From sequence record PQ299149: 42,883 nucleotides of DNA; one strand, written 5' to 3'. Positions 24,198 through 24,295 of this stretch are shown one piece after another. The stretch comes from Escherichia phage LLS. The first letter of the stretch is position 1. The number at the start of each line of letters is the position of its first letter. The position numbers and the translations under genes are program-made. Below the pieces are notes generated by a model. It was not told the DNA's origin, ran no database searches, and worked only from the letters and a program-made list of their open reading frames with translations.

Positions 24198-24225
24198 TTG
24201 ACAAAACCTAAGGCAAGCGTATACT
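24198..24225 (+). promoter_or_regulatory. Near-consensus sigma70 promoter
   Basis: TTGACA (24198-24203), 16-nt spacer, TATACT (24220-24225). Confidence 0.6.
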
Positions 24226-24232
24226 CATAACC

Positions 24233-24294
24233 GCCAAGTTTTCGTATTCACTTACGATAGGAGAAGCCAGCGACAGCAGTACGCTGGCTTTTTC
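24233..24294 (+). ncRNA. Candidate small RNA (~62 nt) convergent with the ImmA/XRE operon
   Basis: Runs from the promoter above to terminator hairpin AGCCAGCG-N9-CGCTGGCT plus TTTT (24265-24293); no ORF or start codon in between; ends 1 nt before the ImmA-like stop codon. Confidence 0.45.
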
Positions 24295-24295
24295 G

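Follow-up and report, generated by a model that had tools for sequence, protein, structure and literature searches.

Gene order and transcription signals of the module

The window, by which we mean the whole analysed stretch of 42,883 nucleotides from Escherichia phage LLS (PQ299149), is a lambdoid siphovirus-type prophage or phage. On its minus strand, a gene for an XRE-family HTH repressor (24836–25189) opens an operon and lies directly before a gene for an ImmA/IrrE-type M78 metallopeptidase with the motif HELGH (24296–24832), which is the order of an XRE-type HTH repressor and an HEXXH M78 (COG2856) protein known from the ImmR/ImmA and CapH/CapP pairs. The repressor matched the Pfam families HTH_19, HTH_31 and HTH_3 (PF12844, PF13560 and PF01381) and the PADLOC profile capH (7.9e-11), and is CapH-like; the peptidase matched PF06114 (1.1e-9) and the PADLOC profile capP (7.8e-15), and is CapP-like. 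The match of the ImmA protein (178 aa) to the capP profile is confined to the N-terminal half of the profile, and a C-terminal GAF domain of the CapP type is accordingly not evident. The promoter region of the operon contains an inverted repeat, GTAGAAT-N27-ATTCTAC, which is kept whichever gene lies upstream. Around the operon we found genes for an invertase (22579–23136, plus strand), a DinI homologue (23185–23451, minus), a phrog_3893 protein (23552–23791, plus), a Bro-N antirepressor (25544–26305, plus), a 286-aa ORF (26525–27385, minus) and an integrase (27382–28557, minus). The DNA similarity to the E. coli lambdoid phages HK225, mEp390 and HK140 ends at about 23807, and the module described below gave no DNA match among the GenBank phages.

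The minus strand continues with a small ORF (24032–24172) for a basic, all-beta protein of 46 aa (MGITNTNEEYITIYRPFITVKGKRIFAHQRGLTAFPIKIPVSKYRG). The original prediction had noted an ORF here with a good ribosome binding site (RBS) and a terminator of its own, and all of these are present: the Shine–Dalgarno (SD) sequence AAGAGG lies at 24187–24182, and an intrinsic terminator with an 11-bp stem, five G-C pairs and the tail UUUUCUCUUU (24018–23993) closes the small ORF and the operon together. A hairpin is also found at this position in other loci, with a different sequence. The intercistronic region between immA and the small ORF (24173–24295, minus strand) would form the 5′ leader in the mRNA of the small ORF; it folds with a z-score of −3.4 and has a hairpin adjoining the SD sequence. 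No sigma70-like minus-strand promoter for the small ORF was seen in 24173–24300, either by the scan or by eye. Inspection of the leader by eye also led us to reject a LexA box, a sigma54 promoter and a terminator of the attenuation type.

The plus strand of the same region carries a promoter at 24198–24225, in which a −35 element TTGACA (24198–24203) and a −10 element TATACT (24220–24225) are separated by a 16-nt spacer. The expectation that this is among the best sigma70 matches held, as it is an 11/12 match in the promoter scan and the whole 42.9-kb window, read on both strands, contains no more than two matches of at least 11/12; 100 dinucleotide shuffles of the window gave 0.33 such matches on average and two at most. 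The other 11/12 match (25493–25520) lies ahead of the Bro-N antirepressor gene. With its near-consensus sequence, the promoter of the small RNA (sRNA) is probably constitutive. The promoter scans used a sigma70-type consensus only, which is crude for non-proteobacterial hosts, and the matches of the promoter and terminator scans overall occurred at background frequency.

From this promoter an sRNA of ~62–65 nt is predicted (24230–24294, plus strand), its 5′ end being placed by prediction at A24230 or G24233. Direct reading of the plus strand between 24226 and 24295 found no ATG, GTG or TTG, which agrees with the start-codon-free stretch described before, and the expected GC-rich hairpin with a U tract follows in the form of an intrinsic terminator (24260–24294) with an extended stem (GGAGAAGCCAGCG / CGCUGGCUUUUUC), a 9-nt loop and U5. 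In its core stem GCCAGCG (24266–24272) pairs with CGCTGGC (24282–24288), a GGAGAA/UUUUUC extension enlarges the stem to 24260–24294, and the T5 tract lies at 24289–24293. Our terminator scan missed this hairpin because loops were limited to 8 nt. Read on the minus strand, the tail of the hairpin is UUCUCCUAU, and no terminator is predicted there. The predicted RNA thus begins with a single-stranded 5′ segment, which is conserved, and continues with a small hairpin (24242–24257) and the terminator hairpin with its 5-nt U-tail. Folding of the RNA had been proposed as a check, and the segment 24232–24298 turned out to be strongly folded (−26.9 kcal/mol, z = −5.3), a value equalled by none of 200 shuffles. 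The predicted 3′ end meets the immA stop codon (24296–24298), with no overlap of the immA coding sequence. The small ORF leader is fully complementary to the sRNA over 24230–24294; no complementarity above chance was found between the sRNA and the translation-initiation region of the small ORF or any other part of the window.

Conservation of the RNA gene and its place among known RNAs

We compared 17 distinct variants of the module by mean pairwise identity. The sRNA promoter (95.2%) and the sRNA (93.5%) are the best-conserved segments, followed by the coding sequences of XRE (82.4%), the small ORF (79.8%) and ImmA (78.9%), and by the RBS spacer (67.5%); promoter and sRNA together reach 94–95%, against 75–82% in the flanking coding DNA. 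Both promoter hexamers are invariant in all enterobacterial variants and the spacer length is almost invariant. Variation within the sRNA falls mainly in the two loops, while the 5′ leader and hairpin 1 vary mainly in the L018-type variant, where a 2-nt deletion disrupts hairpin 1. The terminator stem shows one compensatory change of a G-C to an A-U pair in the L001-type variants, and the other stem variation consists of an A-U/G-U wobble pair and, in the terminator stem, of unpaired cells at the base and at the top. In a test of covariation, the observed score of the sRNA fold was reached by 54 of 500 shuffles; covariation is too sparse, so the fold was rested on thermodynamics and conservation. 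As judged from this comparative evidence, which strongly backs the predicted gene for a short non-coding RNA with a near-consensus promoter and an intrinsic terminator, 24198–24294 is a genuine and so far unannotated small-RNA gene. Conservation above that of neighbouring coding DNA exceeds what a purely cis antisense RNA needs, and could reflect a trans target or protein binding.

The order XRE (116 aa), ImmA (177–180 aa), gap and small ORF (46–47 aa) is kept in sets of 21 and 20 loci and in several further ones. The gap between immA and the small ORF is 123 nt in the window and measures about 114–125 nt elsewhere among the enterobacterial loci. The module is kept as a block in prophages of Klebsiella, of E. 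coli and from metagenomes, and its outer neighbours vary, with Bro-N, SRAP or integrase genes on one side and UmuD-like, UmuC, GIY-YIG or QueH genes on the other; it is present in clinical Klebsiella and E. coli prophages at ssrA. The relationship of the small ORF to the RNA had been called unclear; we see the small ORF not as a unit by itself but as the constant partner of the RNA, as XRE, ImmA, the antisense RNA and the small ORF are kept together.

The sRNA lies outside every family of Rfam 15, including isrJ, isrK, C4, ptaRNA1 and the type I antitoxin RNAs: the proposed comparison with sRNA families gave no match at the gathering score in the whole window, and nothing on the plus strand over the RNA region when 23800–24500 was searched up to E = 10. 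The sole match over 24230–24294 was RefA9 (RF02844) on the minus strand, with 20.7 bits against a gathering score of 49 (E = 1.4). A sub-threshold isrJ match (21 bits against a gathering score of 37) sits on the small ORF terminator, and an isrJ identity was rejected on that ground. A covariance model of the enterobacterial RNA, R1, scored 98 bits at a single site of the window, the sRNA itself. The segment 23900–24400 showed no DNA similarity to GenBank phages or plasmids, nor, by megablast, to complete E. coli genomes; a more sensitive blastn search matched it in 34 E. coli genomes. The sRNA sequence was absent from the Klebsiella RIL-seq supplements (PMC10907235). A search of viral contigs with the sRNA sequence motif gave 31 pattern matches, 16 of which are module loci (15 contigs already known and L086, confirmed by the model); the other 15 fail the covariance model and are chance matches. 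The motif therefore always occurred together with the module in these contigs.

The small protein family and recurrence of the antisense layout

The pattern of substitution in the small ORF is that of a coding sequence, with variable alignment columns at codon positions 1, 2 and 3 numbering 6, 9 and 36 of 38 each. Its close homologues come from Klebsiella, E. coli and metagenomes, and an exhaustive profile search retrieved 116 clusters at E<1e-3, nearly all of 37–65 aa, with the motif [IV]I[YF]RP[FYW]IT[VL]KGKRI[YFW]A..GLKAF.[LI].[IV]P..KYR. The members include proteins from Halomonas, Veillonellales, Dialister, Eisenbergiella, Melainabacteria, Nitrospira, Vibrio, Morganella, Pantoea and others, and from Bordetella phage IFTN8 and Microcystis phage MACPNOA1. 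Codon pattern and homologues together indicate a real gene, one that belongs to a large family without a name. The protein has a pI of 10.4, a GRAVY of −0.25 and a maximum 19-residue Kyte–Doolittle mean of 0.35, without a transmembrane or hydrophobic segment, and its AF2 model (pLDDT 83) is a small beta-sheet with one short helix. It had no match in Pfam, NCBIfam, PHROG, PADLOC or the PDB. Because a homologue exists in a Microcystis phage, we compared the Microcystis type I system msoT1/msoA1 (PMC12390103) and rejected it as a relative, its protein being an unrelated, helical membrane protein.

The 140 loci of the family were clustered into 43 distinct upstream regions, each of which was scanned, with start codons of the distant small ORFs assigned heuristically. 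An antisense sigma70-like promoter 5–70 nt from the ATG (mostly 18–37 nt) was found in 23 of the 43, compared with a shuffle mean of 4.2 (maximum 8) and 4 in the sense control. Antisense-oriented intrinsic terminators 60–240 nt from the ATG were present in 26 (shuffle mean 1.9, maximum 7; sense control 10), and both signals occurred in the right order in 17. Seven of the 43 clusters are of the enterobacterial type and are non-independent, and the excess persists when they are left out. About 40% of the distant family loci have no recognisable sigma70-type antisense promoter.

Several distant loci keep the regulator pair as well. In L042/L043, with 43% protein identity, XRE-ImmA is followed by an antisense TTGACG-17-TACACT 26 nt from the ATG, and the antisense terminator adjoins the immA stop; L040 (60% identity) keeps the XRE-ImmA layout with a two-hairpin RNA, and L061 has XRE-ImmA with an antisense promoter. 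Elsewhere the upstream gene is a 56-aa PADLOC candidate (PDC-S38) beside a divergent WYL regulator, or, in Bacillota loci, encodes a 260-aa winged-helix-like protein, and further kinds of upstream gene occur; in loci with such other upstream genes the antisense promoter and terminator are still present. Where a co-directional upstream gene is missing, the predicted sense promoters lie 200–300 nt upstream, on the far side of the RNA gene. Both strands were read in the window, L040 and L045, and in all three it is the antisense strand that carries the terminator T-tract, which would make no sense unless an antisense transcript exists.

The predicted antisense RNAs of the family are 62–144 nt long, with z-scores of −3.7 to −6.8 in the six that were folded. 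R1 gave no significant match in the distant loci, so their RNAs are positional analogues, and Rfam searches of 20 distant loci found no family match. A model of the Bacillota-type RNA, R2, and the enterobacterial R1 matched each other weakly (11.8–13.2 bits, E about 1–3) exactly at the expected site and strand, and the RNAs of both types have a terminator GCCAGC...GCUGGCUUUU in common; this likeness is suggestive only. What the comparison points to is a putative cis-antisense control of a small protein gene, placed here inside a CapH/CapP-like operon and found again across phyla.

Proposed control, alternatives and known systems

We lean towards a reading in which the RNA is a cis-antisense safety catch, type I toxin–antitoxin-like in the manner of tisB/IstR-1, on a small protein induced by DNA damage, and hold it with slightly more confidence than doubt. 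The target of the RNA is likely to be the small ORF leader and not immA, because the position of the antisense promoter and terminator is kept in distant relatives with a different RNA sequence. On the minus strand no promoter follows immA, the hairpin is without a U-tract, and the operon is terminated only after the small ORF; the simplest view is therefore that the small ORF forms a third cistron behind XRE and ImmA. If it is reached only by readthrough of the operon, every one of its mRNAs would be complementary to the sRNA 58–122 nt upstream of the ATG; this putative overlap of sRNA and mRNA follows from the lack of any sense promoter from the hairpin to the ATG.

The near-consensus promoter would then make an RNA of ~62–65 nt whose terminator stops at the immA stop codon, so that immA would escape antisense reading. 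At basal expression of the operon, an excess of sRNA would pair with the leader and keep the small protein off, possibly through RNase III-type cleavage of the duplex, decay, a block of ribosome loading or head-on transcriptional interference. Lau et al. described CapH/CapP as a repressor/peptidase pair that is activated by DNA damage (ssDNA) and places its cargo under DNA-damage control; a DNA-damage peptidase that cleaves the repressor is known for CapP, and by analogy we infer one for ImmA of the window. DNA damage would activate the ImmA/CapP-like protease and lead to cleavage of the XRE/CapH-like repressor, upon which sense transcription, including that of the opposite Bro-N antirepressor promoter, would exceed the sRNA and the small basic protein would be made. 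Against this reading count the place of the pairing region, 58–122 nt upstream of the ATG and off the RBS, the lack of extra complementarity to the translation-initiation region, the minimal covariation, the high conservation of the RNA, the absence of a hydrophobic segment such as classical type I toxins have, and the distant loci in which no antisense promoter is recognisable. [quoted passage not shown]

More tentatively, the basic beta-protein and its divergent antisense RNA might form a new RNA-gated mini-effector family of several phyla (Proteobacteria, Bacillota, Melainabacteria, Nitrospira and their phages), either a non-membrane, type I-like toxin–antitoxin module or an abortive-infection module, placed as last cistron behind sensors of damage or phage such as CapH/CapP-like XRE-ImmA, WYL regulators with PDC-S38, and winged-helix proteins. 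The sensor would be the trigger and the RNA would set the threshold, and at prophage induction the module would act alongside the Bro-N antirepressor controlled by XRE/ImmA. This wider reading is possible but doubtful at present.

Among other explanations, the RNA might be a trans-acting prophage sRNA of the moron type, whose invariant single-stranded 5′ segment (AACCGCCAAGUUUUCGUAUU, 24229–24248) pairs with host or phage mRNAs, its adjacency to the small ORF being secondary. The segment is nearly invariant even in the L018 type, where the internal hairpin is lost, the RNA is better conserved than coding DNA, and a near-consensus promoter is expected of morons expressed in the lysogen. However, the window contains no complementary site elsewhere, the viral contigs searched had the RNA sequence only alongside the module, the U-tail has no more than 5 U, and distant relatives keep the position relative to the small ORF although the RNA sequence has changed fully, which fits a cis partner; we regard a trans-acting role as unlikely. 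A positive or processing role like that of GadY, in which pairing between the cistrons leads to RNase III cleavage that uncouples and stabilises the XRE-ImmA or the small ORF part, would explain the shared geometry, with an sRNA opposite an intergenic region inside an operon, and the distance of the pairing site from the RBS, and cleavage could remove the leader hairpin beside the SD sequence. Activation and repression are not separable computationally, yet the DNA-damage switch and the defence-candidate neighbours better suit a tightly silenced effector, and we think such a role quite unlikely.

It is also conceivable that the small basic protein binds the RNA or the hairpin of the sense transcript, in the way of a type III-like antitoxin or of a small RNP, with no base-pairing involved. 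The pI of the protein, 10.4, would suit this, as would the conservation of the terminator hairpin in sequence, beyond structure, within the enterobacterial and the Firmicutes groups, the GCCAGC terminator motif that both groups carry, and the weak cross-matches of their covariance models at the right site and strand. These cross-model scores are non-significant by themselves (E about 1–3), however, and L042, L044, L049 and L066 lack the common hairpin sequence; the RNA has no ToxI-type tandem repeats and the protein no recognisable RNA-binding fold, which makes the partnership rather improbable. That there is no RNA gene at all, and that a chance promoter lies beside a terminator hairpin of immA or within a minus-strand ORF (24208–24348), we consider most improbable. 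It would accord with the background frequency of scan matches overall and with gene calls: PGAP (in E. coli) places a hypothetical protein on this ORF, over the sRNA, and PGAP and the metagenome gene callers put an ORF of 49–53 aa across the sRNA region. The ORF was nevertheless rejected as a real gene, because its protein is not conserved: the window and L001 differ by a 1-nt indel that changes the C-terminal frame, and stops interrupt the ORF in L018. The invariance of the 11/12 promoter hexamers between diverging flanks, the T-tract on the plus strand, opposite to immA, and the antisense layout in 23 of 43 loci against about 4 by chance argue for an RNA gene as well.

If the antisense safety catch is real, prophage switches of the XRE/ImmA (CapH/CapP) type would have a second layer of control, made of RNA, which current annotation misses, an unannotated family of 40–60-aa proteins would gain a regulatory logic and a candidate role as damage-induced effectors, and type I-like antisense control would reach a soluble all-beta protein, beyond the usual membrane peptides.

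By analogy, the module would resemble tisB/IstR-1 most in its working and GadY in its geometry, and OOP loosely. In this SOS-controlled type I toxin–antitoxin system of E. coli, TisB is controlled by a repressor and by the antisense RNA IstR-1 (PMC13159721, PMC8145889). The putative two-level hold, with a cleavable repressor and an oppositely transcribed, constitutive RNA on the leader, would be the same here, whereas XRE/ImmA of the CapH/CapP-like kind replaces LexA/RecA, the protein is basic, soluble and all-beta where TisB is a membrane helix, the small ORF would come last in the operon of its regulators, and there is no sequence relationship. Darfeuille and colleagues reportedly found in 2007 that IstR-1 pairs with the tisB leader well upstream of the RBS. 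GadY is an Hfq-associated sRNA opposite the gadX-gadW intergenic region and stabilises the upstream, gadX part of the transcript. Our sRNA would likewise be a cis-antisense sRNA opposite the intergenic region of two co-transcribed genes, but its conserved partner is the downstream gene. With OOP of lambda it shares shortness, a strong promoter, a temperate phage, an intrinsic terminator and convergence with a regulatory operon. OOP reaches over the 3′ end of the coding sequence of cII, whereas the complement of our sRNA is the intercistronic leader of the gene that follows, and its U-tract (24289–24293) ends before the immA stop codon; of the OOP-like convergence on the ImmA operon in the original prediction, the short, terminated RNA convergent with immA stands, and the analogy is only partial, as the immA coding sequence is not overlapped.

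Prophage small RNAs, an ORF of roughly 45 aa and an antirepressor gene also occur together in the Gifsy-1 locus isrK-orf45-anrP-isrJ of Salmonella. The combination of small RNA, small ORF and antirepressor in a prophage accessory region is alike, but IsrK is co-directional with orf45 and our sRNA is antisense, and Rfam gave neither isrK nor isrJ above threshold. For Xre-COG2856 operons, Makarova et al. (2009; PMC2701414) predicted a third, toxin-like gene. The module resembles the Xre-COG2856 modules at large (ImmR/ImmA, DdrO/IrrE and CapH/CapP) in its HTH repressor and HEXXH M78 peptidase, its prophage location and its SOS-type neighbours. Unlike in the predicted three-component toxins, the third gene encodes a 46-aa protein of an undescribed family, not RelE or PIN, and an antisense RNA gene parts it from immA. 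The whole system of RNA and small ORF is compact, at about 300 bp.

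Predicted antisense RNA gene, its annotation and its relatives

The predicted sRNA gene (24230-24294, + strand), antisense to the predicted mRNA leader of the 46-aa small ORF, lies where PGAP and metagenome gene callers place a hypothetical protein of 49-53 aa in related loci, for example at 4134-4283 of L067 (E. coli N1286) and 3862-4023 of L001. This ORF also overlaps the 3' end of immA, and comparison across the related loci found no conservation at the protein level. The annotation is probably a mis-annotation that masks the RNA gene.

In more distant relatives, the antisense RNA and small ORF follow different genes. 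In marine gammaproteobacteria and Morganella they are directly preceded by a gene for a 56-61 aa protein (L052 2651-2821, L059 2639-2824, L063 2653-2823 and L065 2609-2782) that matches the PADLOC defence candidate PDC-S38 (1.5e-31) and is adjoined by a divergent gene for a WYL-domain regulator. The Bacillota and Melainabacteria versions (L045-L048, L108 and L117-L121) are preceded by a gene for a protein of ~260 aa. The antisense RNAs of this group have in common a terminator that is conserved in sequence, CAAGAGGGCCAGCCAC..GUG.GCUGGCU.UUCUUG, to which the terminator of the sRNA in the window, AGGAGAAGCCAGCG..CGCUGGCUUUUUCG, is similar. A sub-threshold match to Rfam isrJ at 23993-24049 (- strand; 21.3 bits against a gathering score of 37, E 0.18) was rejected, as it falls on the terminator of the small ORF and the hairpin alone drives its score.

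Control regions of the XRE-ImmA operon and Bro-N

Upstream of the XRE gene are a candidate promoter, TTGAAT-17-TATAAA (25242-25214, - strand), and, within 25214-25295, an inverted repeat, GTAGAAT-N27-ATTCTAC, which is a candidate for the XRE operator. Both are kept in related loci regardless of which gene (Bro-N, SRAP or integrase) lies upstream. In the window, only one promoter besides that of the sRNA matches at at least 11 of 12 positions: ATGACA-16-TATAAT (25493-25520, + strand), located 24 nt 5' of the Bro-N antirepressor gene (25544-26305) and divergent from the XRE-ImmA operon. This placement suggests that prophage induction can proceed through an antirepressor controlled by XRE/ImmA.

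Module boundary and neighbouring genes

Nucleotide similarity to the E. coli lambdoid phages Phi06_2987, HK225, mEp390 and HK140 takes in the invertase-DinI-phrog_3893 region and stops at ~23807. At the matching end of the similarity in Flotzy, mEp390 and HK140 a UmuD-like gene is annotated, and in the window the small ORF/sRNA/ImmA/XRE/Bro-N block comes next; GC content falls from ~55% to ~41-43% across 24-28 kb. A search of 5426 complete E. coli genomes found the module in 34. Related Klebsiella and E. coli prophages (L001, L003-L005, L021 and L067) are inserted at ssrA (tmRNA)/smpB, with Bro-N as their outermost gene.

Elsewhere in the window, a Gin/Cin-type invertase gene (22579-23136) adjoins oppositely oriented tail-fibre ORFs (20066-21367, + strand; 21429-22505, - strand, the latter with a Peptidase_S74 chaperone domain), an arrangement that suggests an invertible host-range segment within 20066-23136. 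A 286-aa ORF (26525-27385, - strand), encoding a hypothetical protein that matches phrog_7259 (4e-43), shares 4 nt with the integrase stop region and appears to be co-transcribed with int.
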